A DNA stretch of 64,000 nt from Candidatus Magasanikbacteria bacterium GW2011_GWA2_56_11. Its GTDB lineage: Bacteria > Patescibacteriota > Patescibacteriia > Magasanikbacterales > UBA922. The first letter of the stretch is position 1; the number at the start of each line of letters is the position of its first letter. Location of the stretch: NCBI GenBank assembly GCA_001004885.1, contig LCRX01000004.1, positions 11,178 to 75,177 on the forward strand. Reading direction: 5' to 3'. Of the stretch, positions 1-60,404 are shown piece after piece. Position numbers and translations under genes: made by a program. Under the pieces are notes generated by a model. That model saw only the letters and a program-made list of their open reading frames with translations, was not told the origin of the DNA and made no database searches.

Positions 1-557
1 AACATGGTGATCATTCCTTGCTTTTCTTCGGCATACTTTTTTATTTCGTCGGCGCTGGCGCGGGAGTTGATAAGCGCCGTCAACTCCTTGTCTATCTCGA
101 GCACCTCGTAAATGCCGACGCGGCCTTTGTAACCGCTCGATTTGCAGCGCGAACAGCCGGCGCCGCGAAAGAAGCGGAGCGTTTCCAGGCTTTTTTCGCC
201 GGGTTCGAGCTTGATTCCGGCAGCGCCGTAAAGCGTGAGCAATTTTTTGGCGTCAAGCAGGCGGGAAAGTTCGGCGGTGGCCGATTTATCGAGAGGGTAC
301 TCCTGCTTGCAGTAGGCGCAGATTTTGCGCACCAGGCGTTGAGCAACGATAATATTGGCAGTAAAGGCAATCAGGAAGGCCGGAATATCCATGTCAGCCA
401 GCCGGGGGATGGTGGTGGGCGCGTCGTTGGTGTGCAGGGTCGAGAGCACCAAGTGCCCGGTCATGGCGGCGTGGATGGCAATTTCGGCCGTCTCTTGGTC
501 GCGGATTTCGCCGACCATGATGATGTCCGGATCCTGGCGCAAAAAGGCGCGCAGCCC
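1..557 (-). pseudogene. pilB: C-terminal part of the same PilB/GspE ATPase in a shifted frame ([20 protein letters not shown], His box [10 protein letters not shown], Cys tetrad CAYC...CSRC); runs off the window start
   Basis: Manual translation of minus-strand codons ending at 555-557. About 40 conserved codons between Walker A and the Asp box are missing, and the frame is offset by 1 nt in the C-run at 555-558. Confidence 0.6.
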
Positions 558-1584
558 CTAAAAGGGAGTAAAGAGTGGTGGTTTTGCCGCTGCCGGTGGG
601 GCCGGTAACAAGGACCATGCCGTGCGGTTTGGCGATGGCGCGCTCGACGATGGCCTTGGGACCGGGCAGAAAACCGAGTTCGTCCAAGGTGAGCGGTTTT
701 TGGCCTTCCTGCAAAACGCGCATGACGATTTTTTCGCCGTCATAGACCGGGATGATGGAAACGCGGAAGGACAGCTGTTCGTCGTGCAGTTTTATTTTGA
801 AGCGGCCGTCCTGCGGTATCATGTGCTCGTCAATTTTGAGATTGGCGAGAATTTTGAGGCGGGCGACAATGCCCTGGGCCACGCGCTCTGGCAGCTGCAT
901 GGCCTCGCGCAGGGCGCCGTCTACGCGGTAGCGCACGACAAGCGTGCTTTCCGTCGGCTCAATATGGATATCGCTCGCGCCTTCGTATATGGCGTGTTCG
1001 ATAACCGTATTGACGATGTTGACTGTCGGCGCTTCGGCGGCCAGTTTTTTGAGGTAGTCGGTGTCGCCGTGAGTAAGGCCTTCGGTAAGTTTGGTGATAA
1101 ATTTTTCGCCGGTGGTGTCGGTGTGGTAATTTTTTAGGCCCTCTTTGAGCTCGCGCGCCGCGGCCAGGTGGACTACCGGGGTGAGCCCGGTTTTGCGGCG
1201 CAGAAATTCGATGGTCTGGATGTCGGTAGGATCGGCCACGGCCACGAAAAGACCCTGGTCGTTTTTGTCGAAAGCGACAACTTGGTGGGTTTCGGCAAAT
1301 TCTCTGGGGATGGTGGTGAGGATTTCTTGCCTGATTTCTCTGTCTGACAAGCGAACCAGCGGAACGCCGAGGGCGGCCGCGGCTTTTTCGTAGAAAACGC
1401 CTTCCGGGACCAGGTTTTTGTCCACTACAACCGTCTCAAGCGGCAGACGCTCGGCGCGGGCGCTGGCAGCGGCCGACTCTATATCCGGCTCGGCCAGTTT
1501 GAATTCGGTCAGTAAAAGCGACCGCACGATATCGGTGGGAAGCATAGGAGGGGAATTGCAGGGGGTATAATAACACATCCGCAC
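394..1584 (-). CDS. pilB: Type II/IV secretion / type IV pilus assembly ATPase (PilB/GspE family), N-terminal two thirds incl. Walker A; frame breaks at ~556-560
   Basis: ORF track translation has the GspE N-domain and Walker A motif [20 protein letters not shown]. After LYSLL the frame continues as His/Arg/Pro-rich junk, which is atypical. Confidence 0.8.
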
Positions 1585-1991: not shown

Positions 1992-2154
1992 AAAACTCAC
2001 AGCGGGTCCCCCCCCCCCCTTTTTCGCCTCAACGTATCCTTATTTTCGCGGCACCAAAACTCGCTCTTGTGGGGTAAGACATTGGTGCCGCGAAAATCAG
2101 GATACGTTTCGGCCAAAATTAGAAGATAATTGCTAATAGCTCACTATTCAGTTT
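1992..2154 (+). repeat. Copy A of the ~155-nt nested-palindrome MITE/REP-like intergenic element (diverged copy with compensatory stem changes)
   Basis: Aligns to copies at 8682-8836(-), 19255-19410, 24559-24714, 32525-32680 and 59350-59447. Termini are GAACTCACAGCG... and ...AACTCACTATTCAGTT. Confidence 0.85.
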
Positions 2155-8681: not shown

Positions 8682-8836
8682 AACTGGTAGCGAGTTATCA
8701 GCAATTCTATCCTAAGTCGAGCCGAAACAGAGACTGATTTTTACGGCACCAATGTCTGAGCCTGTAAGAGCGAGTTTTGGTGCCGTGAAAATCAGTCTCT
8801 GTTTGAGGCGAAAAGGGAGAAACTCGCTGTGAGTTC
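8682..8836 (-). repeat. Copy B (reverse orientation) of the MITE/REP-like element, between livJ and livH
   Basis: The reverse complement aligns full-length to copies C and E. It is co-oriented with the minus-strand liv operon. Confidence 0.85.
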
Positions 8837-8844
8837 AACCTGAT

Positions 8845-18619: not shown

Positions 18620-19384
18620 ATGCTCACCCCGCACGAGGCCACCAACCGGCGTATCTTCAGCCGCGTAGCGAAGCGCTATGATTCCCCGCTTGCCCGCCGG
18701 GTATATTTCGGGCGGCTCTACCGCCATCTTTTGAAAATACTTGAACGCGAGGCCGGCACTACTCTCGGCGGCGCACGCGTACTGGATGTTGCCTGCGGCA
18801 CTGGCGAGATAATAAACAACCTGGCCCGGCGCTTTTCGGGTTCTGCCTACACCGGCCTCGATATTACCCCGGCGATGCTCGAGCGGGCAAAAAAGAAAAC
18901 CGCCGGCCTGGCCAACGTATCTTTTGTCGAGGCAACCGTGGATGAATTGCCGTTTTTGGACGGTGCGTTTGACTTGGTAATCTGTTCTGAAGCCTTTCAT
19001 CACTTCTCCGATCCAGGCCGGGCTCTAAGCGAAATGCGCCGCGTACTCTCGCTCCGGGGCAGACTGTTATTGGTTGATCCGGCGTTCAACCGGCCGTGGA
19101 TAAGGCGCCTGGCCAATAAATTTTTACCGCGCCTGGAGCACGCCCACGCCGTCTACAGTACAGGGGAATTAGCCGGGTTGATGGAAAATTACGGATTTAC
19201 GGTCGAGTTTCGTTCGACATACGCCCTGAATAGCTTTATACTGGGGGCCAAAAAGAACTCACAGCGAGTTTCCCCCCTTTCGCCTCAAACAGAGACTGAT
19301 TTTCACGGCCCCAAAACTCGCTCTTACAGGCTCAGACATTGGTGCCGTAAAAATCAGTCTCTGTTTCGGCTCGACTTAGGATAG
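18620..19384 (+). CDS. Class I SAM-dependent methyltransferase (Methyltransf_11); last ~40 codons are read through repeat copy C
   Basis: SAM motif VLDVACGTGEII plus LPFLDGAFDLVICSEAFHHF. The C-terminal NSQRVSPLSPQTETDFHGPKTRSYRLRHWCRKNQ is encoded by the repeat. Confidence 0.75.
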   Translation: MLTPHEATNRRIFSRVAKRYDSPLARRVYFGRLYRHLLKILEREAGTTLGGARVLDVACGTGEIINNLARRFSGSAYTGLDITPAMLERAKKKTAGLANVSFVEATVDELPFLDGAFDLVICSEAFHHFSDPGRALSEMRRVLSLRGRLLLVDPAFNRPWIRRLANKFLPRLEHAHAVYSTGELAGLMENYGFTVEFRSTYALNSFILGAKKNSQRVSPLSPQTETDFHGPKTRSYRLRHWCRKNQSLFRLDLG

Positions 19385-19410
19385 AATTGCTAGTAACTCA
19401 CTACCAGTTC
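19255..19410 (+). repeat. Copy C of the MITE/REP-like element
   Basis: Full-length alignment to copies D, E and B. Confidence 0.85.
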
Positions 19411-22418: not shown

Positions 22419-24560
22419 ATGCGCGATCTGCTTAAAATCCACTTTGGCTACGATGAGTTCCGTCCTTTGCAAGAGGATGTCATCAAGACCGTCCTCGGAC
22501 GCCGGGACGCGCTGGTGCTTATGCCCACGGGTGGCGGTAAATCACTTTGTTACCAGCTGCCCGCGCTACAGTTTTCTGGCATAACTCTAGTGGTCTCACC
22601 GCTCATCGCGCTCATGAAGGACCAGGTTGACGCGCTTCAGGCCAACGGCATCGCCGCGGCCTGCCTCACCAGCACGCTCGCGCCCGAAGAATTACGTGTT
22701 CGGGAACGACAGATAGCCGCCGGGGAGATAAAAATCGTGTATCTCGCCCCGGAGCGGCTGGCCATGCCAGGTTTCCGGCAATTTGTCCGCACGCTGCCCG
22801 TGGATTTTATTGCCGTGGATGAGGCGCACTGCATCTCGGAGTGGGGGCATGACTTCCGCCCGGAGTACCGCAAACTTCAGGGTCTCCGGGCGGATTTCCC
22901 CCGCTCTCCGGTCGTCGCGCTCACCGCGACCGCGACGAAGCAAGTGAGGGAGGATATAGTCCGGGAGCTGAGATTAAAGGAGCCGCGGATTTTTGTCTCC
23001 AGCTTCAACCGGCCGAACCTGACCTACCGGGTGGAACCAAAAGACAAAACTTTCGATCGGTTAGCGCGGATTTTGGATCAATATCGCGGCGAGTCGGCTC
23101 TGGTTTATTGCTTTTCGCGCCGCGACACGGAAACACTCTCCCGCGATTTGACCGCTGCCGGGTTCTCGGCCCTGCCGTATCACGCCGGTTTGGACCCGAA
23201 GACGCGCGGGGAGACGCAGGAAAAGTTTATCCGCGACGAAATTCCGCTAGTCGTCGCGACGATTGCCTTTGGCATGGGCATTGATAAACCAAACGTCCGG
23301 CTGGTGGTGCATTATCATCTGCCCAAAAGCATTGAAGGGTATTACCAGGAGACCGGCCGCGCCGGCCGCGACGGCTTGCCGAGCGAGTGCGTGCTGTTCT
23401 ACTCGCCGGCGGATTGCGAAAAGCACCGCTATTTTATCGCCGAGATCGGCGACCCGGCGGAGCGCGCGCGCTCCGAGAGAAAACTGGCGGAGATGGTGCG
23501 GTTTGCCGAGCTGACCGCATGTCGCCGCGCGTTTTTACTCCGGTATTTCGGCGAGACGGACGCTGCAAATTCCTGCGGCGCTTGCGACCGGTGTCTGACG
23601 CCGCGGGAAACATTTGACGGCACATTGGCCACGCAGAAGATACTGTCGGCTGTTATCCGAACCGGCGAACATTATGGCGCGAGTTATATTACGGACGTTT
23701 TGCGCGGTTCCCGAAGCGCGGATATTTCCGCCCGCGGGCATGACCGGCTGGGGGTTTTTGGTTTGTTTTCGGACACGAGCAAGCCGGAGTTGCGCGATTA
23801 CATGGCGCAGCTCACAGCTGCCGGCTATCTGGGCAAAGAGGCCGGCAGGTACCCGACGCTTTTTGTTACTGCCGCCGGCAAACGCTGGCTCAGGGATCGC
23901 GGAACAGTCAGCTTGACGCGCCCTTGCGAACCGGACGAGCCTGCCGCCGGCAGGCACAGCGACTTGCCCTACGAGGTCGAACTTTTTGCTTCTCTTAGGG
24001 ACTTACGTAAACATTGCGCCCAGAAAGAAAACGTGCCGCCGTTTGTAATTTTTGGCGATCGCACTCTAATCGAGATGGCTTACTACTTGCCGGACTCGCT
24101 CTCTGGCCTGCGGGCGATTACCGGCGTGGGCGAGGCAAAGCTTGAACGCTATGGGCAGATATTTTTGCGCGAGATAACTGCCTATGCCCAGGCGCGCGCC
24201 CTTGGCGCCCGGGAACGGCCGCGGCGCCACCGCCCCGAGACTGTCCGGGCCACTTCGACGTATCTGGCCACCAGGGACCTGGTCGCCCGGCAGCTGCCGC
24301 TCTCTGCCATTGCCTCAGCCAGGGAATTGGCCCCGGAAACTATCGTGGGCCATTTGGAAAAATTGTTGGCCTCCGGCGAGGCGCTCGATATAGAATACCT
24401 CAAGCCGCCGCCGGAGAGGTTTGCCGCCATCGAGGCGGCTTTCCGCCGGAGCGGGCAGCCCTGGCTAACGCCGGTGCGGCGTCTTTTGCCGGAGGAATAC
24501 AGCTACCTTGAGCTGCGATTGGCTCGGCTGTGGCTGCGTGATATACTCGATTCCGAATGA
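22419..24560 (+). CDS. recQ: ATP-dependent DNA helicase RecQ (helicase + RQC + HRDC)
   Basis: LVLMPTGGGKSLCYQLPAL, DEAHCISEWGHDFRPEY, the Zn-binding CxxC...CxxC and a C-terminal HRDC domain. Confidence 0.9.
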   Translation: MRDLLKIHFGYDEFRPLQEDVIKTVLGRRDALVLMPTGGGKSLCYQLPALQFSGITLVVSPLIALMKDQVDALQANGIAAACLTSTLAPEELRVRERQIAAGEIKIVYLAPERLAMPGFRQFVRTLPVDFIAVDEAHCISEWGHDFRPEYRKLQGLRADFPRSPVVALTATATKQVREDIVRELRLKEPRIFVSSFNRPNLTYRVEPKDKTFDRLARILDQYRGESALVYCFSRRDTETLSRDLTAAGFSALPYHAGLDPKTRGETQEKFIRDEIPLVVATIAFGMGIDKPNVRLVVHYHLPKSIEGYYQETGRAGRDGLPSECVLFYSPADCEKHRYFIAEIGDPAERARSERKLAEMVRFAELTACRRAFLLRYFGETDAANSCGACDRCLTPRETFDGTLATQKILSAVIRTGEHYGASYITDVLRGSRSADISARGHDRLGVFGLFSDTSKPELRDYMAQLTAAGYLGKEAGRYPTLFVTAAGKRWLRDRGTVSLTRPCEPDEPAAGRHSDLPYEVELFASLRDLRKHCAQKENVPPFVIFGDRTLIEMAYYLPDSLSGLRAITGVGEAKLERYGQIFLREITAYAQARALGARERPRRHRPETVRATSTYLATRDLVARQLPLSAIASARELAPETIVGHLEKLLASGEALDIEYLKPPPERFAAIEAAFRRSGQPWLTPVRRLLPEEYSYLELRLARLWLRDILDSE

Positions 24561-24714
24561 ACTCACAGCGAGTTTCTCTCCTTTCGCCTCAAACATAGAC
24601 CGATTTTCACGGCACCAAGACTCGCTCTTGTGGGCTCAGACATCGGGGCCGCGAAAATCAGTCTATGTTTCGGCTCAACTTAGGGTAGAATTGCTGATAA
24701 CTCACTATCAGTTC
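24559..24714 (+). repeat. Copy D of the MITE/REP-like element (starts at the recQ stop codon)
   Basis: Full-length alignment to the other copies. Confidence 0.85.
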
Positions 24715-28618: not shown

Positions 28619-30415
28619 ATGCCAGCCGCCAGACAATCCAGACACGGCGGATTTTCTCTCCTCGAGATCGTGATCGCGCTCGGCGTGTTTGCGATTTTTG
28701 TCTTGGGCATTTACGCCGGCATTCAGACGGTTTATCGCATCGTTTACCAGGCGCGGGTGCAGATAATCGAATCGGGGATTTTGAATGAGCAGGTGGAGTT
28801 CGTCCGCAATCTGTCGTATTTCGACGTCGGCCTAGAAAATGGCAGTCCAGCCGGAGTTATGGCGCGCACGGCCACTACCACCAAAAACGGAATTGAGTTT
28901 ACCCTTACACGGACCGTACGCAGCATTGACGACCCTTACGACGGCACTATCGGCGGCACGCCGAATGACACGGCGCCGGCCGATTACAAGCTGGTGGAAA
29001 TCGCCGTCATATGCGTTTCGTGCGGCCAAAAAGCGGCCCGCACGGTAACTACCACGGTCGCGCCCAAGTACTTGGAAAACAACGCGGACAACGGCGCCCT
29101 GTTCATCCGCGTTTTCGATGCTGCGGCCGTCCCGGTGAGCGGAGCATCCGTACACCTGAGCGCGCCGGCGGCCAACCCGGCCATAGATTTGACCGACACG
29201 ACTGGCAACGACGGCATGCTTAAGCTCGTGGACCTGCCGCCCGGGGTCGGCATTTATAATATCGCGGTCAGTAAACCCGGTTACACTTCCGAACAGACCA
29301 GAGTCGAGAGCGAGAGCCTGCCCAACCCCTTCCATCCCCCGGCCTCGGTAGTGGCCCAGTCGGTGAGCGAAGTCAGCTTTACGATCGACCGGGTGTCTTC
29401 TTTTACCGCCTCTACGATGGACACGCTGTGCGATCCGATCGGAAACGTAAGAGTCGGGATAGAGGGCAGCCGGGTGATAGGCACCGAGCCGGATACGCTC
29501 AAAGTTGACACTACTTTTGTGACCGACGGGAGCGGGGCCAAGACGCTTGCCGATTATGAGTGGGACGTTTATACCTTCAGCCCGAGCGGCTATGATATCG
29601 CCGGCTCGATCCCAAGCGTGCCGCTTGACCTGCCGCCCGGCGTGGACCAGCCGGTGCAGCTGATTTTGCGGCCGAATACGGCCTACTCTCTTTTGGTTAG
29701 TGTGCGCGATAATATTACCAAACAGCCGGTTTCCCAGGCTACGGTGCACGTTACGTCCACGGCCGGCTACGACGAGAGCGCCGTAACCGGTGTCGGCTAT
29801 ATCCGCCAGACCGACTGGTCTGGCGGAAGCGGCCAGGCGGCGATGGCAGAGACTACCCGGTACTGGAGCGATGACTCGGGAGTGGATACCCTGGAATCGC
29901 CGGGCAACATCTATCTGCGGCATTTGGGCAGCGATTATGTGGGCCTCGGCAGCCTGGAGTCTTCCACCTTTGATCTGGGAGTAGCGGCCGACTATATTTC
30001 CCTTTTGTGGGAACCTTTTTCCCAGCCGGCTCCGGCCGGGGCAGCCCCGGTGCGCTGGCAAATCGCCACCGCTAGCACGACCGACCCGGAAGCCTGGGAA
30101 TACCGCGGGCCGGACGGAACCGGCGGGAGCTACTACACGCCGACCGCGACGGCCGTAAATACTGTCCATAACGGCGACCGGTACGTACGCTACCGGCTTT
30201 GGCTCTCGACCGTTTCGAGCACTTACTCGCCGCTCATTTCGGACATGACTTTGAGTTACACCAATAGCTGCACGCCGCCCGGGCAGGCGTACTTTGGCGG
30301 ACTTTCCAGCGGGACGCACACGGTGGAGGTGACCGTGCCGGGTTATCAGACCTACCGCAGCGATGTTTTGGTCGGCGGAGATACTTATTTCACTGTGGAA
30401 TTAGTGGGAGTCTAG
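28619..30415 (+). CDS. Large type IV pilin-like (minor pilin/pseudopilin) protein with class III prepilin leader and CarboxypepD_reg-like beta-sandwich domains
   Basis: Leader MPAARQSRHG followed by FSLLEIVIALGVFAI (Gly-1, Phe+1, Glu+5). Repeated GASVHLSA...GIYNIAVSKPGYTSEQ and GTHTVEVTVPGYQTY motifs. Confidence 0.7.
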   Translation: MPAARQSRHGGFSLLEIVIALGVFAIFVLGIYAGIQTVYRIVYQARVQIIESGILNEQVEFVRNLSYFDVGLENGSPAGVMARTATTTKNGIEFTLTRTVRSIDDPYDGTIGGTPNDTAPADYKLVEIAVICVSCGQKAARTVTTTVAPKYLENNADNGALFIRVFDAAAVPVSGASVHLSAPAANPAIDLTDTTGNDGMLKLVDLPPGVGIYNIAVSKPGYTSEQTRVESESLPNPFHPPASVVAQSVSEVSFTIDRVSSFTASTMDTLCDPIGNVRVGIEGSRVIGTEPDTLKVDTTFVTDGSGAKTLADYEWDVYTFSPSGYDIAGSIPSVPLDLPPGVDQPVQLILRPNTAYSLLVSVRDNITKQPVSQATVHVTSTAGYDESAVTGVGYIRQTDWSGGSGQAAMAETTRYWSDDSGVDTLESPGNIYLRHLGSDYVGLGSLESSTFDLGVAADYISLLWEPFSQPAPAGAAPVRWQIATASTTDPEAWEYRGPDGTGGSYYTPTATAVNTVHNGDRYVRYRLWLSTVSSTYSPLISDMTLSYTNSCTPPGQAYFGGLSSGTHTVEVTVPGYQTYRSDVLVGGDTYFTVELVGV

Positions 30416-30448
30416 GAGCGCCGGCGGGCAGCCGGCGGGGTAAATCGA

Positions 30449-31069
30449 GTGTTAATTAAGTTTATGCGTTTAAATCGCTCCGGTGTTACCATGGTCGAGG
30501 CGGCGGTCGCTATTGGCGTCTTTTCGCTGCTTTCCCTGGCTATCGGCTGGATAGTTATTATCAGCAGTCGAACCAACAGCACGGTGAGCGATCAGTTGCG
30601 CTCCCAGGGCGATATGCGCCGGACTTTGCGCGAGGTGGTGGATACGGTCCGCAAGGCCGAGACCTCCAGCCTGGGCGCTTACCCATTGGCGGTCGCGGGC
30701 AGTTACGAACTGGCGGTCTACGCCAATATTGACGGCGATAGCCTGAAAGAGCGGGTGCGGTTTTGGCTCGACGGCCGGACGCTTAAGCGGGGGCTGACAG
30801 AGCCGGCGGGCAATCCGCTTGGTTACTCTGGTGCCGAGAGCGTGGTAGAGTTGGCGCATGACGTAATCAACCAGGAACAAAGCACGCCGCTATTTCTCTA
30901 TTTTGACGAGTCGTATACCGGCACGCAGGCGGCCCTGGCGCAGCCGGTAAGCAGCACGGCCGTGCGGTTGATAAAAATGCAGCTTGATCTGGAGCGCGAT
31001 CCGGCGAAAAGCCCGGTGCCGCTGCATGGAGAGAGTCTGGTGCAGATAAGGAATACTAAAAACAATTAA
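30449..31069 (+). CDS. Type IV pilus minor pilin/pseudopilin-like protein (prepilin-type N-terminus)
   Basis: MRLNRSG followed by VTMVEAAVAIGVFSLLSLAIGWIVII (Glu+5). Confidence 0.6.
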   Translation: MLIKFMRLNRSGVTMVEAAVAIGVFSLLSLAIGWIVIISSRTNSTVSDQLRSQGDMRRTLREVVDTVRKAETSSLGAYPLAVAGSYELAVYANIDGDSLKERVRFWLDGRTLKRGLTEPAGNPLGYSGAESVVELAHDVINQEQSTPLFLYFDESYTGTQAALAQPVSSTAVRLIKMQLDLERDPAKSPVPLHGESLVQIRNTKNN

Positions 31070-32463: not shown

Positions 32464-32524
32464 AAACCGGGATAAGAGCCGGGCTTTTTCCCGCCGGTGT
32501 TCTCTGGTATAATACTTTCAGCTA

Positions 32525-32680
32525 GAACTCACAGCGAGTTTCCCCCTTTTCGCCTCAAACATAGACTGATTTTCACGGCGCCAAAACTCGCTCTTGTGGG
32601 CTCAGACATTGGTGCCGCGAAAATCAGTCTCTGTTTCGGCTCGACTTAGGAGAGAATTGCTAACAACTCACTATCAGTTC
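32525..32680 (+). repeat. Copy E of the MITE/REP-like element (reference copy)
   Basis: GAACTCACAGCGAGTTT...CGCCTCAAACATAGACTGATTTTCACGGCGCCAA...TTGGTGCCGCGAAAATCAGTCTCTGTTTCGG...AACTCACTATCAGTTC. Confidence 0.85.
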
Positions 32681-33589: not shown

Positions 33590-34480
33590 ATGCCTACTAT
33601 TTTGAGAATTCAACTCCGTTTGGCGTGTGCCGGGTTAGCTATCCTGTTTTTGTTTTTTGCCGCCTCACCAACGCTGGCCCTTGACGCATCGGCCTGCGCG
33701 CAGCTTTATGGCCAATCATATTCTGGCTGCGTTCTTCTTGAAAAGGGGGCTTTTGCAGACGCCTGTCAGAATGCCCAAGGACCGTTCAAGGCCAAACTGG
33801 AGCAAACTTTGTCAAGCGGCGCGGCGCAAACCGGATCGGCCTGCACCCAGACGTTTTTGCTCATGTATAATAATTCCCAGGGAGACTTCGCGGCTGATAC
33901 CGATATCGAAAAATGCGTCGCCGAACTGGTAAACTGCGCCGAGTTGTTTTTGCAATGCCAGGGCAATACCGGCCAGGTGGACATGAACGATTTGGAAAGC
34001 CAGTGCAATTATTTTCTGGCGGGCGGCACCAAAAATTGGTCGCAGTTTAAGGGGCAAGACTTATGCAGCGCGGCTATAAAATCCGAGGGAGTCTGGGGAG
34101 AGAAGTGCGCCAAATATACCGGCGACCTGGAGAAGACCAAGGCCGAAGAAGGGTTGACGCCCCCAGCCGGCAAAGACCAGCAGGCTGAGTACGCTGCCGC
34201 TCTGGCGGAACTTCAGGCCAACGCCGCCGGGCTGAACCAGCTCAAAACCAAGGACATACGTTTGCTTATCGGCGGCCTGATAGCGAAGGCGCTCGGCGTC
34301 GTGGGCAGCATCGCGTTGTTGATGTTCGTGTATGGTGGTATACTGTGGATGACCGCGGCCGGCTCGAGCGAAAAAACCGAGAAAGGGCGCCAGATTTTGG
34401 TCTGGAGCGCTCTGGGGGTAATAGTGATTTTTTCGAGCTACGCTCTCTTGGATATAGTCTTCGAGGTGTTCCGTCCATAG
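33590..34480 (+). CDS. Secreted Cys-rich protein with C-terminal TrbC/VirB2-like pilin-type membrane domain
   Basis: Signal peptide and ~14 Cys in the N-domain. C-terminus LIGGLIAKALGVVGSIALLMFVYGGILWMTAAGSSEKTEKGRQILVWSALGVIVIFSSYALL. Confidence 0.65.
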   Translation: MPTILRIQLRLACAGLAILFLFFAASPTLALDASACAQLYGQSYSGCVLLEKGAFADACQNAQGPFKAKLEQTLSSGAAQTGSACTQTFLLMYNNSQGDFAADTDIEKCVAELVNCAELFLQCQGNTGQVDMNDLESQCNYFLAGGTKNWSQFKGQDLCSAAIKSEGVWGEKCAKYTGDLEKTKAEEGLTPPAGKDQQAEYAAALAELQANAAGLNQLKTKDIRLLIGGLIAKALGVVGSIALLMFVYGGILWMTAAGSSEKTEKGRQILVWSALGVIVIFSSYALLDIVFEVFRP

Positions 34481-34528
34481 CCAGCCTCGGCCGCGCGCGC
34501 ACGCGCCCGGGAAGAAAATTATTGCCGT

Positions 34529-35944
34529 ATGGTTTTGTCTTTGACAGGTTTAGAGGCGCCGCGGGGCGGGAAGACTCGCCGTTGGGTATCCCTCGCCGTG
34601 CTTGGCCTGTTTTTTGTTACCCTGGGTTTCGGTTGCAAGGGTCTTTCCCAACAAGAGAGGGCGGCGGTCAAACCGGTAACTCTCAACTACTGGACCGTGT
34701 TCAACGATACCGAGGAACTCAAACGGCTGGCGTCCGAGTACCGCCAGCTCCGGCCTTATGTCAAGGTCAACATCCGCCAGGTCCGCTACGAGGAGTTCGA
34801 CCGCCTGTTTCTAAACGCGCTCGCCGACGATGTCGCTCCGGACGTGGTTTCTCTGCACGCGCGCTGGATTAAAAAATACCAAAATCGCCTCGCCGAAATG
34901 CCGGCCAGCGTTTCCACGGCCCGCCTGATAGTGAAGGGCGGCCTGACCAAAGAAACCCAGGTAGTAGTCGACACTACTCCCATGCCCGGCATCGGCGACA
35001 TTAAGCGCGATTATGTCGGCGCGGTGGCCAATGACGTAATTATTGGCGAGGCTGTCTACGGACTGCCGATCGCTCTCGACACGCTGGCCATTTATTACAA
35101 CAAGGACCTTTTGGACAAGGCCAACATCGCCGAACCGCCGGCCACCTGGGACGAATTTTTGGAGGCGGTGAAAAAAACCACCAAATTCGGCCCGGACGGC
35201 AAGATCGTCCAGTCTGGCGCCGCCCTCGGTACGGCCAACAACATTGACAACGCTTTCGATATCCTGTCGGTTCTCATGATGCAAAACGGGGTCAAAATGG
35301 CCGCCAAAGGATCGGTGCAGTTCGCGAGCGGTCTCGACAAGGCGGGCGAGACGCATCCCTCGCTCCAGGCTCTGCGTTTTTACACCGATTTTGCGCGCCC
35401 GACCAAGGAATCATATTCCTGGAACGAAACCATGGAGCCGGCTCTCGATGCTTTCGTGCGCGGCAAGGCCGTGTTTTACTTTGGGTTCGCCTACGACAGT
35501 TCCCGTATCACCAGCCGCGCGCCCGAGCTGAATCTGGAGGTTATCCCGCTGCCCCAGCTGAACCCGTCCGCGCCGGTGAACGTCGCCAATTACTGGGTAG
35601 AGGCGGTAGTAAAAAAATCCAAGCACCAGAACGAAGCCTGGGATTTCATCCGGTTTATGACCGCGCCGGATCAGGCCAAGCGGTACGCCCTCTCTACCGG
35701 CCGGCCGTCTGCGTACCGGACGCAGATCAAAGAATTGGCGGACAATCCCCGCCTCGGTCCGTTCGTGAGCCAGACGCTGATAGCGGAAAACTGGTACCAC
35801 GGAGAGGATATTACGCAAGCGGAAAAAGCTTTTGACGATTTAATCACCGCCACCCTGCGGCCTTACGCCGACAAGGACGACCCGACCAAACGCGATGCCG
35901 GGTTTATCGCTACTGCGGCGCAGATGGCGCAGCAGACTTTTTAG
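34529..35944 (+). CDS. ABC transporter substrate-binding lipoprotein, family 1 (sugar/oligosaccharide type)
   Basis: Lipobox LGFGC and a type-2 periplasmic binding fold typical of SBP_bac_1 (~470 aa). Confidence 0.7.
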   Translation: MVLSLTGLEAPRGGKTRRWVSLAVLGLFFVTLGFGCKGLSQQERAAVKPVTLNYWTVFNDTEELKRLASEYRQLRPYVKVNIRQVRYEEFDRLFLNALADDVAPDVVSLHARWIKKYQNRLAEMPASVSTARLIVKGGLTKETQVVVDTTPMPGIGDIKRDYVGAVANDVIIGEAVYGLPIALDTLAIYYNKDLLDKANIAEPPATWDEFLEAVKKTTKFGPDGKIVQSGAALGTANNIDNAFDILSVLMMQNGVKMAAKGSVQFASGLDKAGETHPSLQALRFYTDFARPTKESYSWNETMEPALDAFVRGKAVFYFGFAYDSSRITSRAPELNLEVIPLPQLNPSAPVNVANYWVEAVVKKSKHQNEAWDFIRFMTAPDQAKRYALSTGRPSAYRTQIKELADNPRLGPFVSQTLIAENWYHGEDITQAEKAFDDLITATLRPYADKDDPTKRDAGFIATAAQMAQQTF

Positions 35945-35947
35945 GGT

Positions 35948-37453
35948 ATGCGGAAATTAAACTGGCAAAAGGCGAGTGTTTGTCTTTTAGGCATATTCTT
36001 TTTGCTGTTTCTATTTTGCCCGCTGCCGACCGGGGCGGAACTTAATAAAGGAGTTAGCTATAAAGCAGTAAACGAGTGCCCTGATCCTGGCACAGGCAAA
36101 AAAATTGCTTTGTTCGTACTGGCTTTGAATCGACCACCGGCTGATTCACCGCCTCCACCTGAGGAGTACTGCGTCCCCGTTACTGACACCCAAAATACGG
36201 TCTCCTTTCAGGATTTGGTTAGTGCCGGTGTTTTCACAGACGATTGGGCAGGAGAAACATATACTTTTTCCGTTTCTGATGGCGCGGGCTGTAATTTAGA
36301 TCCGAAGATTGTCTATTGGAAAGAGGGCGCGCTGAAAGATTTGCCTCAGGCTAAATGGCCAGAACTTTCTCCGGAGATGCCGCTTTCTGGGGCGCAGTTC
36401 GTGGTGAGTGGTAAGGTCGATTATAAATGCATTGTGATGGCAGGGTCGGAACCGGAGTTACAAGACAAAAAAGATTTGAATATTATTTACTTTGTCACCG
36501 ATCCGAAATATGGACCGGAGATGGAGAAGGGGTGGGCGACTCTTGTCCCCAAGGGATTTTATGGGGACTTAGCGTACGACCAAGACGCCATTGATTGGGA
36601 AGGCGCAACAGAGATAAAGGTGGATTTTGGCGCAGTAAAGGAAATCACTGTGTTTGCCGAAGAGGACGGAGCGGGCACCAGTGGGGAGGTAAAAATAGAA
36701 TGCCTTGACTGTAACAAGGACTGGTCCGGGTTTAAGACAGAAAAAATCGAGGGCGGCGAAACAAAGGCAGTTATCAAGGTAGACACCGGCGCCTATTATG
36801 AAAAAATGGGAGTGGAGCTGCCGGCAAAATTTACCGTTAAGCTCAAAGGGACGGTGGGGAGCAAAAAAGGGCCTAGGTACAGCTTCTTTGAGTTTTCCAT
36901 CACCATCAACAAATTCAACTGCGCGGAAAAGAAAACCGGGAGCGACTGCAACAAAAACACGCAGTGTTTCTTTTTTGAAAATATTTGTCAGAGCAAGTAC
37001 GACAAGAATATCTGCAAACAGCTGCCGCAGACCCTGTGCGCCCCGGCGCCGGGCGGCAGCAAGGTTTGCACCTGGAACGAGGCCACCAAGCAGTGTCTCG
37101 AGCCGGTCGCGACGAGCATCGCCGAGAGCTACGGCGTGCCGGACGGCTACAAAGGCCCGCTGCCGCCCTGCGCCTTCTCCGGGACGTGCGACAATATCAA
37201 TATCCTCCTGAATTTGTTTATTGCCCAGGGCAAAGGCATTTTCGGCCTCATCGGCGTGGTGGCGCTCGGCGCTTTCGTTTACGGCGGTTTTATGATGATT
37301 TTCTCTCTCGGCAGCTCCGAGAGGGTAGAGACAGGGAGAAAGGCGATGACCGCGGCCGTAGTCGGGCTCATCATATCCTTTAGCGCTTATATCCTGGTGG
37401 ATTTTGTTCTCGACGCCCTCAAAGTGAGCGATTCATTCAAGGTCATAAAATAA
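35948..37453 (+). CDS. Large secreted Cys-rich protein (501 aa) with C-terminal TrbC/VirB2-like pilin-type domain
   Basis: Signal peptide and a Cys-rich ectodomain. C-terminus IFGLIGVVALGAFVYGGFMMIFSLGSSERVETGRKAMTAAVVGLIISFSAYILVDF. Confidence 0.65.
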   Translation: MRKLNWQKASVCLLGIFFLLFLFCPLPTGAELNKGVSYKAVNECPDPGTGKKIALFVLALNRPPADSPPPPEEYCVPVTDTQNTVSFQDLVSAGVFTDDWAGETYTFSVSDGAGCNLDPKIVYWKEGALKDLPQAKWPELSPEMPLSGAQFVVSGKVDYKCIVMAGSEPELQDKKDLNIIYFVTDPKYGPEMEKGWATLVPKGFYGDLAYDQDAIDWEGATEIKVDFGAVKEITVFAEEDGAGTSGEVKIECLDCNKDWSGFKTEKIEGGETKAVIKVDTGAYYEKMGVELPAKFTVKLKGTVGSKKGPRYSFFEFSITINKFNCAEKKTGSDCNKNTQCFFFENICQSKYDKNICKQLPQTLCAPAPGGSKVCTWNEATKQCLEPVATSIAESYGVPDGYKGPLPPCAFSGTCDNINILLNLFIAQGKGIFGLIGVVALGAFVYGGFMMIFSLGSSERVETGRKAMTAAVVGLIISFSAYILVDFVLDALKVSDSFKVIK

Positions 37454-37462
37454 CCTGCCGCT

Positions 37463-38167
37463 ATGCGCTCTGCCCGCTGGTTTGGCCTCATGGCCGCGTT
37501 CGCGATTTTTGGCGCCGGTTTGGCGTCCACGACTACAGCCCTGGCCGTCGCCTCTCCGAGCAAAGTGCCGCTCATAAATCCGATCGGCGGCACGGTGGCC
37601 AAACCGGAAGGCCAGACCAGCATCCCGAAAATTATCGGGGGCATGATTAAAACCGTTCTCGGGATAATGGGCTCTTTGGCTTTCATTGCTTTTATCTACG
37701 GCGGGTTTGCCTGGCTCACGGCCGCCGGCAACGCCGACCGGGTGCAAAAAGGAACGCAGGCAATGGTATGGGCGGCGATAGGCGTATTTATTGTTTTTTC
37801 GAGTTATGCTATACTCAGTCTAGTTTTTGAGGGACTGGGGATAGAAGACCAGGCGCCGCCGGGTACGACCGTTTGGTGCATCGACAATGCCAACAGCGTG
37901 TGTGCCGAATTTTTGGCGGACGAGTGTCCCGGCTCCCCGTACGTTACCGAACAGGAGTGCCAGACAGTGCTGGAAAATTACCTGGACGCCCCCCCGCCGG
38001 TTGATTTGGAAGGCTGTTTCTGCACCATCGACTCGGTGGCGCAGCAAAAAGTAAGCGGCAGCCCGCTCTATGACGACCCGACAAAATGCGCGGCCGCGAG
38101 CGATACGACCGACCCGGCCCTCGGCCACCTGACCGAATGCGGCTGGATCGGCGGGGCATTTGAATAA
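37463..38167 (+). CDS. Protein with N-terminal TrbC/VirB2-like pilin-type domain and C-terminal Cys-rich domain
   Basis: Signal peptide, then IIGGMIKTVLGIMGSLAFIAFIYGGFAWLTAAGNADRVQKGTQAMVWAAIGVFIVFSSYAIL, followed by a tail containing 9 Cys. Confidence 0.65.
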   Translation: MRSARWFGLMAAFAIFGAGLASTTTALAVASPSKVPLINPIGGTVAKPEGQTSIPKIIGGMIKTVLGIMGSLAFIAFIYGGFAWLTAAGNADRVQKGTQAMVWAAIGVFIVFSSYAILSLVFEGLGIEDQAPPGTTVWCIDNANSVCAEFLADECPGSPYVTEQECQTVLENYLDAPPPVDLEGCFCTIDSVAQQKVSGSPLYDDPTKCAAASDTTDPALGHLTECGWIGGAFE

Positions 38168-38216
38168 AAGAGTAAAGCTATGGAATTTATCTACATAATA
38201 GAAGGGAGGTGATATC

Positions 38217-38723
38217 ATGTCTACGTTAACAAAATTGGCGAAGCACCGGTCGGTTATCGCGGCCGTGTCAGTTTTCGCCCTCGCTGTGGCCCTTTTGCCG
38301 GGTACAGTGTCCGCCAAAGCCGTGGGAGAAACTTGTGTCAAAGATTTGGAGTGCGACGCCGGACTCACCTGCCAGAGCGGTAAATGCGGCAAGGATGTCT
38401 TTGGGTTAAACCCGATCGACGAAGAAGTCGGCAACACCCTCGGCAATGAGGACCTGCGCAGCACCATCGGTCGTTTGATCAACGTGGCGCTCAGCTTGCT
38501 CGGTATCATCGCCGTCGTCATCATTCTCGCCGGTGGCTTCAAGTGGATGACCGCCGGAGGCAATGAAGACAAAGTGGGAGAGGCCCGCAAGATGATCTTT
38601 TCGGGTATTATCGGCCTGGCCATCATATTGTCGGCTTGGGCGATTGCCTTGTTCGTCTTGAATCAGCTTAACAAGGCGACGAACCCGGACGCGTCTGAGG
38701 ATATCTCCGATATTATCGACTAG
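38217..38723 (+). CDS. TrbC/VirB2-like pilin-type protein with small Cys-knot N-domain; first gene of the 9-gene tandem array (candidate major subunit)
   Basis: GAAGGGAGGTG RBS. Signal peptide, CVKDLECDAGLTCQSGKCG, then RLINVALSLLGIIAVVIILAGGFKWMTAGGNEDKVGEARKMIFSGIIGLAIILSAWAIALF. Confidence 0.7.
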   Translation: MSTLTKLAKHRSVIAAVSVFALAVALLPGTVSAKAVGETCVKDLECDAGLTCQSGKCGKDVFGLNPIDEEVGNTLGNEDLRSTIGRLINVALSLLGIIAVVIILAGGFKWMTAGGNEDKVGEARKMIFSGIIGLAIILSAWAIALFVLNQLNKATNPDASEDISDIID

Positions 38724-38730
38724 TTTCCGC

Positions 38731-38765
38731 GGGCAGGGGGTCGCCCCCTGCCCTTGCTCTTTATT
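38731..38765 (+). terminator. Strong GC hairpin GGGCAGGGGG-tcg-CCCCCTGCCC + T-rich tract (terminator/attenuator after first pilin-type gene)
   Basis: Perfect 10-bp stem read from the sequence. Confidence 0.55.
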
Positions 38766-38778
38766 CCCGGTTTGACGG

Positions 38779-38806
38779 GTGATACCTGGCCGGGGCCAGG
38801 TATCAC
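38779..38806 (+). promoter_or_regulatory. Second perfect 11-bp hairpin GTGATACCTGG-ccgggg-CCAGGTATCAC upstream of the next pilin-type gene
   Basis: Read from the sequence, followed by a T-rich region. Confidence 0.45.
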
Positions 38807-38829
38807 GTGTTAAATTCTTTTACTTTTCT

Positions 38830-39267
38830 ATGACTTCGCGCCGCCTTTTCCAGGCCCTGTCCCTGGGTATTATGGCCTGGGCCTCTTTGGTCCAGGTTAC
38901 GTTCGCCGATCCGCCGGCACCCCAGCCGCCATGCGGCATTGACCCCAACGACCCGCTGGCGCTCGACTGCGCCGCGGCCAGCGGACTGGTAGCCACCGAT
39001 CCGCGCCTCATAGCCGCGCGGATTATCAACGTAATTCTGGGCGTTCTAGGCACGGTGGCGACCCTGCTTATCTTCTACGCCGGCTTTCTCTGGATGACGG
39101 CCGCGGGCAACGAAGACCAGGTAACCAAGGCCAAAAGCATTATGTTCAGCGCAGTGGTGGGGTTGGTAATTATTTTGAGCGCCTTCGGCATCTCGACTTT
39201 CATCGTGCGCTACATTTACGAGGCCTCGTCCGGCGCGGGCTACGGTTCGGGCCCGGTCATTCCCTAA
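38830..39267 (+). CDS. TrbC/VirB2-like pilin-type protein
   Basis: Signal peptide MTSRRLFQALSLGIMAWASLVQVTFA and DPRLIAARIINVILGVLGTVATLLIFYAGFLWMTAAGNEDQVTKAKSIMFSAVVGLVIILSAF. The track ORF start at 38779 lies in the hairpin. Confidence 0.7.
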   Translation: MTSRRLFQALSLGIMAWASLVQVTFADPPAPQPPCGIDPNDPLALDCAAASGLVATDPRLIAARIINVILGVLGTVATLLIFYAGFLWMTAAGNEDQVTKAKSIMFSAVVGLVIILSAFGISTFIVRYIYEASSGAGYGSGPVIP

Positions 39268-43791: not shown

Positions 43792-46098
43792 TTATAAGAG
43801 ATTAGTCTGCAGGTGATAGTACGGCGGACGGTGGCGGTAGCGCTTGATGGCCATTTCGATGATAGCTTCGAGGAAGTCGCCGTAGTCCATGCCGACAAGC
43901 TGGGCTACGGACGGGACGCAGTCGCCAATATCTATCGAGGGGTTGGGGTTGAGCTCCAGCACATAGGGGTTGTCATCCGCGTCGACGCGCAGCTCGACGC
44001 GGCCATAGTCGTGGCAGTCGAGAATAGTGTAGGTGTCAAGAGCGATCTCGGTAATGAGAGATTCGAGTTTTTTGGCGATATTTTTGGGCGGTTTTTGGGT
44101 AATTACTTTGTTGTCATACACCGGGTCAAGCGACCATTTGGCATTGTAGGGGAAAATGTGCCAGTAGCCTTCGGGCAGGTCCTTGAAGATACTGCGCGAC
44201 AGGGGCAGCACCTGCAGGTCGTGGCGCTCGCTGCCGAGAATGGAGACGTCGTACTCGTCGCCTTCGATGTATTCCTCCACCAGGGCCGGGCTGCCTACTT
44301 CGACGATAATCCTTTCCAACTGTTTTTGCAGCTCCCGGCGGTTGGTAACCACCGAATCGTTCGTAATGCCGATCGAGTTATCGGTGTTGGCCGGTTTGAT
44401 AATGAGCGGGTAACGCAAGTCTTCGCTGATTTTGTCCTCCATGGTGTAGGCGTAGTCCCATTTGGGAGTGGGGATGTTGTGGTAGGACAGCAGTTTTTTG
44501 ACCCGGATTTTGTCTATACACAGCGAGAGCGTGAACGGGTTGGAGTTCAGGTCGTCAATCACTTCGGGGAAGCGGTTGAAATTGAAGATACTTACCCGGT
44601 AGCCGCGCTCGCGCAGGGTCCGTTCGATGTTTAACGCCCGGTTCATCAGGTCGCTTTCTTCGCTTTTCGCTTCGCCATTGTAGACGTTGGCCGCTATCCC
44701 CAAGTGCAGGCGGCGTTTGTCGGATTTGGCCAGCCGGCGCAGCCGTTCAATGCGGCTGTTCGCCTTGGTGAGAGGATTGGAACTGATGAGGGCCGACGAG
44801 AAGCGGTTTTTGCGCGAGGTTTTGCCGAGCGACGAGTAACTTTTGAAAGGCGCTACCTCAATGTGCACGCGCTCTTCAACCTCGGCGAGCGCGGCCTCGG
44901 CCTCGGCGTAGGACTGGCCTTGGATGAGCACCCAGCCGATGTCCTCGAAGCCCTCGGGCGGGACGAGCACGGTATCGCCGACTTCCTTGGCCAGGAAATA
45001 ATCAACCACGGAGGGGTGTTTTTTTATCTCGTCAAAACCGCTGATCTGCGTGATCAGGCCGGAGCTTTTGGGAATGAAGTACTTGGCGACGATATGTTTT
45101 TTCGGTTCTTTGGCTTGGTCCGCGACATTGAGTCCGAGCGCGATTTCGGCGCCGGCTTTGATGAGATCGACGCCGTAAATTTCCTGGATCGATTTGTGCG
45201 TGTAATCGCCGCCCAGCCGCGAGGCCGCCTCGATCACTTTCGGCCCGTCTTTAGTCAGTTTGATTTCCACCTGCGCCAGGCTGTTTTGGACTTTGAGCAC
45301 GATAAGGGCCGCTTTGGCCGCTTCAGTCAGGGCCGCGAGCTCTCCCTCGTCGATGCGCGGTGGCGCGTAGTCGCCGGTTTCAAGAAAGAACGGCAGATTC
45401 ATCGCTGTTTTTTCGTGAACCCCGACAATGTGCGGGACGCCGTGTTGGACGTAACCTTCGAGGCTGAATTCGTGTCCCTCAATGAATTCCTGGTATAAAA
45501 AGAGCTTTTTATTGTACTTGTACACCGGATCGTAGTCCGGGTTACAGTTTTTCATCAAGTACTCGTAACCCTCTTCGGCTTCGTGGCGGTCGGAAACGTA
45601 GACTACGAATTGGCTGTCCGAACCGAGCAGCGGCTTGAGCACGGCCGGGAATTTGATCCGGCGCATGGCCGCCGTCAGGTCTTGGCGGTTCTTGATCAGC
45701 TCCTGGGAAATATACGGTTCGCCGCAGGCCCGCAGTACTTCCTGCATGTGGAATTTGTTGCGCGTATTCACGGCCGCCTCGGGCGAGTTGCCGATCCATT
45801 TAAACTCGGCGCATAGCTTGGCCAGAAGGGGAATGTCGTCTTCCCAGAAAGTAACCGCGCCGTCGATGGCGAGCGCTCCGCGTGAAGAGAGATAGGTTCT
45901 AACCGCCTCGACAGACTCGGTGTGGCTGTAGGTGTCGGCCGGTATCCACTGGTCTACGTACGGGTTGGCCCAGGGTTTTTCGCGGCCGAGCACCACCAGG
46001 TTGAGTCCGAGTTTTTTCAATTTTTGGAGGATAAATTTTTTTTTGATTGACCCGGTATTTACCACGAGCAAATTTTTTTTAGCCAGTCTGGTGGTCAT
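43792..46098 (-). CDS. Fusion of two ATP-grasp ligase domains (N-terminal carboxylate-amine ligase-type + C-terminal D-Ala-D-Ala ligase-like)
   Basis: N-domain NTRNKFHMQEVL...FPAVLKPLLGSDSQFVVYV...LYQEFIEGHEFSLEGYV. C-domain YIEGDEYDVSILG...DCHDYGRVELRVDADDNPYVLELNPNPS. The track ORF uses GTG at 46116; ATG at 46098 is used here. Confidence 0.65.
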   Translation of the reverse strand: MTTRLAKKNLLVVNTGSIKKKFILQKLKKLGLNLVVLGREKPWANPYVDQWIPADTYSHTESVEAVRTYLSSRGALAIDGAVTFWEDDIPLLAKLCAEFKWIGNSPEAAVNTRNKFHMQEVLRACGEPYISQELIKNRQDLTAAMRRIKFPAVLKPLLGSDSQFVVYVSDRHEAEEGYEYLMKNCNPDYDPVYKYNKKLFLYQEFIEGHEFSLEGYVQHGVPHIVGVHEKTAMNLPFFLETGDYAPPRIDEGELAALTEAAKAALIVLKVQNSLAQVEIKLTKDGPKVIEAASRLGGDYTHKSIQEIYGVDLIKAGAEIALGLNVADQAKEPKKHIVAKYFIPKSSGLITQISGFDEIKKHPSVVDYFLAKEVGDTVLVPPEGFEDIGWVLIQGQSYAEAEAALAEVEERVHIEVAPFKSYSSLGKTSRKNRFSSALISSNPLTKANSRIERLRRLAKSDKRRLHLGIAANVYNGEAKSEESDLMNRALNIERTLRERGYRVSIFNFNRFPEVIDDLNSNPFTLSLCIDKIRVKKLLSYHNIPTPKWDYAYTMEDKISEDLRYPLIIKPANTDNSIGITNDSVVTNRRELQKQLERIIVEVGSPALVEEYIEGDEYDVSILGSERHDLQVLPLSRSIFKDLPEGYWHIFPYNAKWSLDPVYDNKVITQKPPKNIAKKLESLITEIALDTYTILDCHDYGRVELRVDADDNPYVLELNPNPSIDIGDCVPSVAQLVGMDYGDFLEAIIEMAIKRYRHRPPYYHLQTNLL

Positions 46099-46545
46099 AA
46101 AATAAAAAAACAACACGCCTAATTAGTGTTGATTAGTTGGCCAGGATGAAAATTGTCTGCCGTACCGGCAGCTGCCGGCTCGTCGGTGTTATCGACCATA
46201 GGCGCGGGATGCCCGCCGGGGGAACTATACCGCATTTTTAGCCGCGGCGCAAGGGCCGGAAAATCGCCCCGCACAGGGGGGAAGTAGCGGGCGCTCGCCA
46301 AATGTACGCACTAAAATGGCGAGCGCCCGCGGCCAGAAATCGCCAGCGGTTCGGCACCGTGTAGCCGAATTCCCTGGGTAAGCAGGGCGGGGCGGAATGC
46401 CCCCAGGAGGAGCGGGGCATCCCCCCGGCGTTTAACTGGCATTAAGTACCATACTGGCGGGCGCGGGCGGCGTCAACCTTGGGGATAAAACCATGGACCC
46501 GCTTTATTCCGCTGAGATAACAGCCGTTATCAGCGCGGTCAGCCC

Positions 46546-57351: not shown

Positions 57352-57451
57352 ACGCGAGTATTGTACGACACAATTGACGACCGGTCAATTTTGGACTACA
57401 GTCTAGAACCCACTCCCAAAATTTCGCTCTGCCGATGCCTGCGGCGTAGGT

Positions 57452-59317: not shown

Positions 59318-59349
59318 AAGAACACAAAAAAATTGAAATTAATACAATT

Positions 59350-59447
59350 GAACTCACAGTGAGTTCCCCCCTTTCGCCTCAAACATAGACTGGTTTTCAC
59401 GGCCCCAAAACTCGCTCTTACAGGCTCAGACATTGGTGCCGTAAAAA
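59350..59447 (+). repeat. Copy F of the MITE/REP-like element, 3'-truncated
   Basis: The first ~98 nt align to the other copies. Homology is lost after GTAAAAAT. Confidence 0.75.
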
Positions 59448-60404
59448 TGGGGTGATCTTGGGGTGCCGGGCTATCATTCGGCGCACGTCTTTTTCGGTGA
59501 GGAGGCCGGTTTGCGCCCCCCACTGTTGGATAACGCCGCCGGCATTGGCTGTGCCCCACTGCATGGCTTCGGGGAGGGAAGACCCAGACATGTAGGCGCG
59601 CAGAAAACCGCTGGCGTAGGCGTCGCCGGCACCGGTTTTGGAAACCACCTTAACAGGGTAGCTGGGCAGGAAATAAAGGTCGTCTCCTTGGGAGGCGAAT
59701 GAGCCGCGGACGCTGTCGGTAACGACAACAGTTTTGGGTCCGAGACGGCGCACCGCGGCGCACAGGGCGCGCATAGTCCTTTTTTCGCCGGCGAGACGCT
59801 CCGCTTCTTGTTTGTTAACAATCAGAAGATCGGTCAGAGGCAGAATTTTGGCGAATTCCTCCCGGCCTTTTTTGAGCTGGTATGATCCCGGATTCACGGC
59901 CAGCTTGAGCGTGCGGTGCCGCTTTAGATACGCGGCGAGCCGTGCCTGGAGGCGTTCGAAAGATTCGCCGAGCGATGTGTAGTACAGCCACCGCGCTGCC
60001 GGCAGAGCCGGCAGGCGATAACGGCGGGCGGCATGATAGGCCAGAATGGTACGTTCTCCGCGGTAGCTCAGGACAATCGAGTAACGCGTGGTCGCGCGCG
60101 GCTGCAAAGAGACGAGGCCGGTGTCAACCCCGGCCTCTTGCAGAGCGTCGTGTATGGCGTAGCCGTTCAAGTCGTCGCCAAGCTGGGTTACAATCGCGGC
60201 GGCCAGGCCCAGCCGGCTCGCTCCGGCCGCCACATTGGCCGCGTTGCCGCCGACCGATTGCGCGGTTTCTTTGATGGGGATTTTTTCCGCGTAGTCCAAA
60301 CAGAGCTGGCAGTGTTCGCGGCGCACGTCGCACTGGAGCGTGGCGTCGTCCACGATGAGGAAAGTGTCCAAGGTGGCGTCGCCAATGGTGATAAGGTCGA
60401 ACAT
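59418..60404 (-). CDS. PfkB-family carbohydrate kinase (ribokinase-like)
   Basis: C-terminal TGAGDAYASGFL motif and N-terminal GG motif SVGGNAANVA. The last ~10 codons overlap repeat copy F. Confidence 0.75.
   Translation of the reverse strand: MFDLITIGDATLDTFLIVDDATLQCDVRREHCQLCLDYAEKIPIKETAQSVGGNAANVAAGASRLGLAAAIVTQLGDDLNGYAIHDALQEAGVDTGLVSLQPRATTRYSIVLSYRGERTILAYHAARRYRLPALPAARWLYYTSLGESFERLQARLAAYLKRHRTLKLAVNPGSYQLKKGREEFAKILPLTDLLIVNKQEAERLAGEKRTMRALCAAVRRLGPKTVVVTDSVRGSFASQGDDLYFLPSYPVKVVSKTGAGDAYASGFLRAYMSGSSLPEAMQWGTANAGGVIQQWGAQTGLLTEKDVRRMIARHPKITPFLRHQCLSL

Follow-up and report, generated by a model that had tools for sequence, protein, structure and literature searches.

An interrupted pilB gene in the draft genome of Candidatus Magasanikbacteria bacterium GW2011_GWA2_56_11 probably reflects a local assembly error

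The pilB locus and nearby pilin genes

The stretch of DNA analysed here, which we call the window, comprises 64,000 nucleotides of contig LCRX01000004.1 from the draft genome of Candidatus Magasanikbacteria bacterium GW2011_GWA2_56_11. Its left edge falls within a gene for a PilB/GspE-type ATPase on the minus strand, whose open reading frame starts at 1545 and opens with MLPTDIV. The parts of this gene, in the order in which they are translated, are as follows.

1545..1, minus strand: PilB/GspE-type ATPase gene, continuing past the left edge of the window
556..1545, minus strand: pilB codons 1-330, in frame and the same as in intact alleles, with the MshEN N-terminal domain, the start of the T2SSE ATPase domain and the Walker A motif GPTGSGKT
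555..558, minus strand: deletion junction, reading GGGG (CCCC on the plus strand), at which 116 nt found in other assemblies are missing; microhomology of 2 nt
394..555, minus strand: out-of-frame tail of 53 codons with a stop at 396-394, forming the end of the 383-aa product KKW42680.1
1..557, minus strand: pilB codons 369-553 in another frame, with the Walker B motif and catalytic Glu, the His box and the tetracysteine motif, leaving the window

A preliminary description of this DNA had reported a break in the minus-strand frame, and both the translations of the open reading frames and the alignment to the best solved relative, which is interrupted at the same place, confirm it. The junction indeed lies in the CCCC run at 555-558, GGGG on the minus strand, and translation also bears out that the gene carries on in the neighbouring frame from 557, through CAYC...CSRC. 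The sequence spanning the junction in the window is CTTTTAGGGGCTGCGCGCC. The 53 out-of-frame residues that follow it in the upstream frame are low-complexity junk, and the fragments are annotated as two proteins, KKW42680.1 (383 aa) and KKW42679.1 (173 aa), of a 91,996-nt contig. Past the left edge of the window, a sister contig (L002) supplies the remaining 24 pilB codons.

When the two fragments are joined, they match the Pfam family T2SSE (PF00437) at 345.8 bits against a cut-off of 24.9, with the match split into two stretches because of the gap, and they also match the MshEN domain. Their best solved relative is the PilB of Geobacter metallireducens (5TSG/6OLJ; E=5.3e-100), with a match that stops at chain index 360 and restarts at 398. 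The Walker A motif GPTGSGKT is present in the upstream frame, while the atypical Walker B motif with the catalytic Glu (DPDIIMVGE) and the His box are present in the downstream frame only; this second frame also holds the tetracysteine Zn-binding motif, CAYC...CSRC. Missing from the window copy is the Asp box with its Mg-coordinating Glu, and in place of a single continuous frame of about 570 aa there are two of 383 and 173 aa, compared with 577 aa in sister contigs. Both shortcomings of the window copy, the missing Asp box and the split frame, are due solely to the gap. The preliminary description had taken the Walker B neighbourhood to be lost, having swapped the two motif labels: DPDIIMVGE is retained downstream, and it is the Asp box that has gone.

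The same description had pointed to a large investment in pilin genes nearby. Pilin genes are present, and most of them belong to the VirB2/TrbC-like family T4SS_pilin (PF18895), for which seven open reading frames score above the Pfam cut-off, one at 2164-2700 and six within 33590-39267. At the sister locus the run of T4SS_pilin genes goes on to about 42.7 kb (42668), in part as weak matches, and it is broken up by an SBP gene (34529-35944). The T4SS_pilins of PF18895 are distinct from type IV pilins and, to our knowledge, are not assembled by PilB. A type IV pilin N-terminal methylation motif is found only in the open reading frames at 28619-31069 (28619-30415 and, more weakly, 30449-31069).

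Intact alleles of the same population and the missing segment

A protein search returned a 577-aa relative that equals the window fragments except for the missing block and two residues just downstream of it. For comparison at the nucleotide level, we used ten contigs from independent assemblies of the Rifle aquifer, found through the neighbouring 52-aa open reading frame. The junction is covered by nine of these ten contigs, from nine assemblies, and the 116 nt are present in all nine, between flanks that match those of the window exactly or almost so. Seven of the nine encode an intact 577-aa PilB; of the other two, one is broken by a run of 10 Ns alone and one solely by a divergent, low-coverage contig end. 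The disruption is thus reproduced in 0 of the 9 other assemblies. An exact look-up found no other assembly encoding the truncated 383-aa product, and the 39-mer just left of the junction had no exact match in the public genome and metagenome contig collections that were scanned.

Outside the gap, the window copy is indistinguishable from its intact counterpart. Compared with L002, pilB nt 1-990 carry no substitution and nt 1105-1661 are 100% identical, which amounts to 0 substitutions over the roughly 1,550 nt outside the gap, with no further frame disruption or decay. The flanking 11.3 kb are 99.97% identical to L002 and L003, and over the rest of the 64-kb window identity to the closest assemblies is about 99.97-100%, some four substitutions being private (at 1672, 8033, 29452 and 46176). 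The proposal that the pilus extension ATPase is a pseudogene therefore finds no support for the organism, given intact 577-aa alleles with nucleotide-identical flanks and the lack of further decay. Three sister contigs (L002, L004 and L005) continue beyond the left window edge and show pilB followed by T2SSF (pilC) and then PilM_2; the pilC and pilM genes beside pilB are intact in the organism.

Per-run assemblies of BioProject PRJNA268031, a filter-fractionated Rifle aquifer series covering six time points, supplied two of the intact contigs; we infer that this series is the one behind the GW2011 genomes. The contigs with an intact gene may derive from time points or filters of the series other than those of the window. 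Two contigs (L001 and L008) carry a second pilB haplotype, which starts 60 nt downstream of the gap with seven substitutions in 21 nt (window 477-497) and changes DQETAEI to DNETAEL. In L008 it passes into a far more divergent 3' part, which suggests either recombination between strains or a chimeric low-coverage contig.

Alignment to the intact alleles places the missing block at pilB nt 991-1106, that is, 116 nt or 38 codons plus 2 nt. The residues lost are L331-G368, encoded as LLNTPDVNICAIEDPIEYHVGGINQSQINPKAGFTFAG, and the block comprises the Asp box, along with the Glu that corresponds to E357; in intact alleles of the same population the Asp box reads AIEDPIEY. Residues are numbered with a 20-residue tag offset, which we verified on T327, T411, H413 and H420 (named in PMC5424180), and with this offset the last Glu of EDPIE falls on E357 in the G. 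metallireducens PilB. In that protein E357 coordinates Mg2+ and is reported to be completely conserved in the family, and the tetracysteine motif is conserved in the PilB/GspE clade (PMC5424180). The missing segment is encoded nowhere else within the 64-kb window, and tblastn over the same 64 kb found no second PilB/PilT-type (T2SSE) ATPase.

The break had been described as a deletion of about 120 nt plus a 1-nt offset, with alignment to intact PilB homologues proposed as a check. That alignment shows one missing block at the junction. The absence of sequence from the record is confirmed, and the separate 1-nt error is not, since a single 116-nt gap in the alignments to intact alleles accounts for both. 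The same result bears on a homopolymer miscall, in which one C gained or lost in the CCCC run would shift the frame of an otherwise complete gene. The frame switch does fall on a 4-nt homopolymer; however, the 116 missing nt encode 38 conserved residues and occur nowhere else in the window, and a one-base correction would leave the Asp box missing. With 116 nt missing rather than 1, the alignments refute this alternative, which had been offered in the preliminary description, and we give it next to no credence.

We also considered that the two fragments might make up a functional split or recoded PilB, through either a programmed frameshift or two polypeptides that together form an active ATPase. 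Both fragments retain long open frames and both are annotated as proteins, yet neither frame encodes the Asp box, whose E357-equivalent Glu is a Mg2+ ligand with reportedly complete conservation across the family (PMC5424180). The 120 best homologues listed are, moreover, all single proteins of 559-605 aa, with no split or Asp-box-less form among them, and a normal protein of 577 aa is encoded in the same population, all of which makes a working split enzyme exceedingly improbable. An intein or intron was rejected as well, as sequence has been lost rather than inserted, and the lost part is the conserved Asp box.

Several other features of the region were observed in the course of this comparison. 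A family of repeats of about 150 nt has six copies in the 64 kb, with an invariant core, CCAAAACTCGCTCTTnnnGGnnnAGACATTGGTGCCG, lying within an inverted repeat of about 23 bp.

1994-2150, plus strand: repeat copy
8684-8840, minus strand: repeat copy
19251-19407, plus strand: repeat copy
24555-24711, plus strand: repeat copy
32521-32677, plus strand: repeat copy
59345-59448, plus strand: repeat copy, cut by a 103-nt gap

In the copy at 2054 the pairing is kept despite a different stem sequence, and most copies lie directly upstream of an open reading frame on the same strand. A search of Rfam gave no family above threshold and only weak generic hairpin matches, and the core has no exact match in the GTDB species representatives. 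Possible identities for the repeat are a MITE-like element and a shared leader or regulatory hairpin. Within one copy, between a divergent T4SS_pilin gene and the 52-aa open reading frame and pilB, is a poly-C tract (2008-2019; poly-G on the pilB strand), with a length of 12 in the window, L002 and L003, 10 in L001, L004, L005, L006 and L008, and 7 in L007. Two contigs end at this tract, which could be phase-variable or merely error-prone. At 1672 the window has a private G where 10 of 10 other contigs have T. This G disrupts what would otherwise be a perfect GC-rich hairpin of 16 bp (CCGGAACGGCGGCCGC...GCGGCCGCCGTTCCGG), located downstream of the 52-aa open reading frame; at the same position, the L001 scaffold is interrupted by a gap. 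The context, a T read as G after CCG in an inverted repeat, looks like that of a typical Illumina systematic error.

Four private gaps and the origin of the break

The gap in pilB is private to this record, as are three like gaps on the same scaffold, which are listed here without strand.

44545..44546: gap 2, 111 nt missing; microhomology of 0 nt; private to the window
57422: gap 3, 118 nt missing; microhomology of 1 nt; the segment is present in four independent contigs
59448..59449: gap 4, 103 nt missing; microhomology of 0 nt; within a copy of the ~150-nt repeat

All three affect genes. At 44545, sister-scaffold genes of 567 aa and 216 aa appear in the window as a single 774-aa open reading frame (43792..46116); L019 has a 10-N scaffold gap 14 nt away, and the contig L020 starts within the missing segment. 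The gap at 57422 takes away the beginning of a SpoU-type methylase gene, with its start codon and N-terminus, and that at 59448 gives a PfkB-family gene a changed 3' end; the resulting product, specific to the window, does not occur in any other assembly. Each of the three is contradicted by two to four independent contigs. The four gaps span 103-118 nt and share no sequence, and microhomology at their junctions is 0-2 nt.

A gap of this kind could nevertheless be a real deletion, namely a null pilB allele in the dominant sub-population of one sample, produced by illegitimate deletion beside short repeats and leaving cells without the extension motor. A 6-nt direct repeat, GGGCTG, flanks the missing block, standing at both of its ends one base out of register, an arrangement reminiscent of slippage, and microhomology at the junction amounts to 2 nt. 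The consensus is presumably derived from reads, and the few private substitutions are consistent with a window that may come from a slightly distinct sub-population or strain. However, repeat-mediated loss would take 117 nt and stay in frame, while 116 nt are lost here. Nine other assemblies are intact, and the flanks show no extra decay. In addition, three more private gaps of 103-118 nt, without common sequence and with 0-1 nt of microhomology, lie within the same 64 kb, so that this explanation needs four deletions of nearly identical size to have occurred while about four single-nucleotide variants became fixed. We therefore regard a real deletion of pilB as unlikely. That all four gaps are real, with a sub-population having undergone a burst of uniform-length deletions, among them one that inactivates the pilus extension ATPase gene, strikes us as more doubtful still; if they were, they would hint at a hitherto unknown deletion process or at pilus loss in an episymbiotic CPR bacterium.

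Four gaps of the same size set against about four single-nucleotide variants are not plausible as a mutation spectrum and point instead to systematic local misassembly. Similar private defects elsewhere on the scaffold are what an assembly error would lead one to look for, and here there are three, of 111, 118 and 103 nt. Taken together, these sequence comparisons lead us to conclude, with a probability of roughly 88%, that the pilB frame is broken by a local error, made in assembly or in joining scaffolds, in the draft metagenome-assembled genome GW2011_GWA2_56_11. Some 116 nt would have been lost while the genome was being assembled or curated, with the flanks joined directly, and the real organism would have an intact and ordinary PilB-type pilus extension ATPase of 577 aa, its gene being followed by pilC and pilM. 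An assembly error was among the alternatives first put forward for the break, and it is the one that the data support, with a gap private to the record, nine assemblies that carry the segment and three more private gaps of 103-118 nt.

The assembler itself is the presumed cause of the gap. Among the points that count against an assembly error are the possible origin of the intact contigs in other samples of the series and the fact that a de Bruijn assembler should make no junction that lacks reads unless a scaffolding or patching step does so. The genome name suggests a coverage of about 11x, if its '11' is read in this way, as the window's GC content of 56.7% fits the '56'. For sister Rifle data sets from the same laboratory, 150-bp reads were assembled with IDBA-UD, and flagged regions were reassembled by Velvet or turned into Ns (PMC4736985; PMC5079060); passages in these papers credit the procedure to Brown et al., 2015.

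Local assembly errors have been described by Chen et al. 2020, who reported 13 in one 1.13-Mb CPR genome (PMC7111523). The gaps in the window resemble the IDBA-UD local errors of that paper in that short stretches of the consensus disagree with assemblies of the same population, in that they recur several times per scaffold, and in that the genome concerned is that of a CPR bacterium, has low coverage and comes from the same laboratory's pipeline. They differ in their narrow size range of 103-118 nt, which is absent from that paper's description (PMC7111523).

Consequences for the record and comparison with known PilB proteins

The main value of the finding is in quality control. In GenBank and UniProt, KKW42680.1 and KKW42679.1 would be pieces of one ordinary PilB, and at least three other gene models on the scaffold are probably damaged likewise: the 'fusion' of 774 aa (43792..46116), the SpoU methylase that has been cut short and the PfkB-family protein with a changed C-terminus. 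Claims from this record that a CPR bacterium lost its pilus motor, or that it encodes novel fused proteins, would be wrong. The uniform gap size of 103-118 nt may also be useful as a signature when further GW2011 draft genomes are screened for this defect.

The intact gene is an ordinary PilB-clade T2SSE ATPase of a CPR bacterium. Among the matches listed, homologues of 573-577 aa with 55-60% identity number in the hundreds, in Magasanikbacteria and other Patescibacteria. In alignment with the PilB of G. metallireducens, a type IVa pilus extension ATPase (5TSG/5TSH/6OLJ), the intact allele needs no gaps from the Walker A motif through the Asp box, the Walker B motif and the His box to where the Zn motif starts, and the residues T327, E357, T411, H413 and H420 of that protein are identical in it. 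Compared with the same protein, the window copy is frame-shifted and has no equivalents of chain index 361-397, which include E357, whereas the intact sister allele shows no notable difference. The same T2SSE core is found, at E values of 1e-53 to 1e-58 over the core segment, in Myxococcus xanthus PilB (3JC8), Thermus thermophilus PilF (5IT5/6F8L) and Vibrio GspE/EpsE (1P9R, 4KSS), which also have the tetracysteine motif in common with the window gene (PMC5424180). GspE differs in its N-terminal region, and the MshEN domain, together with the T2SSF/PilC and PilM context, is more in keeping with a PilB than with a type II secretion ATPase.
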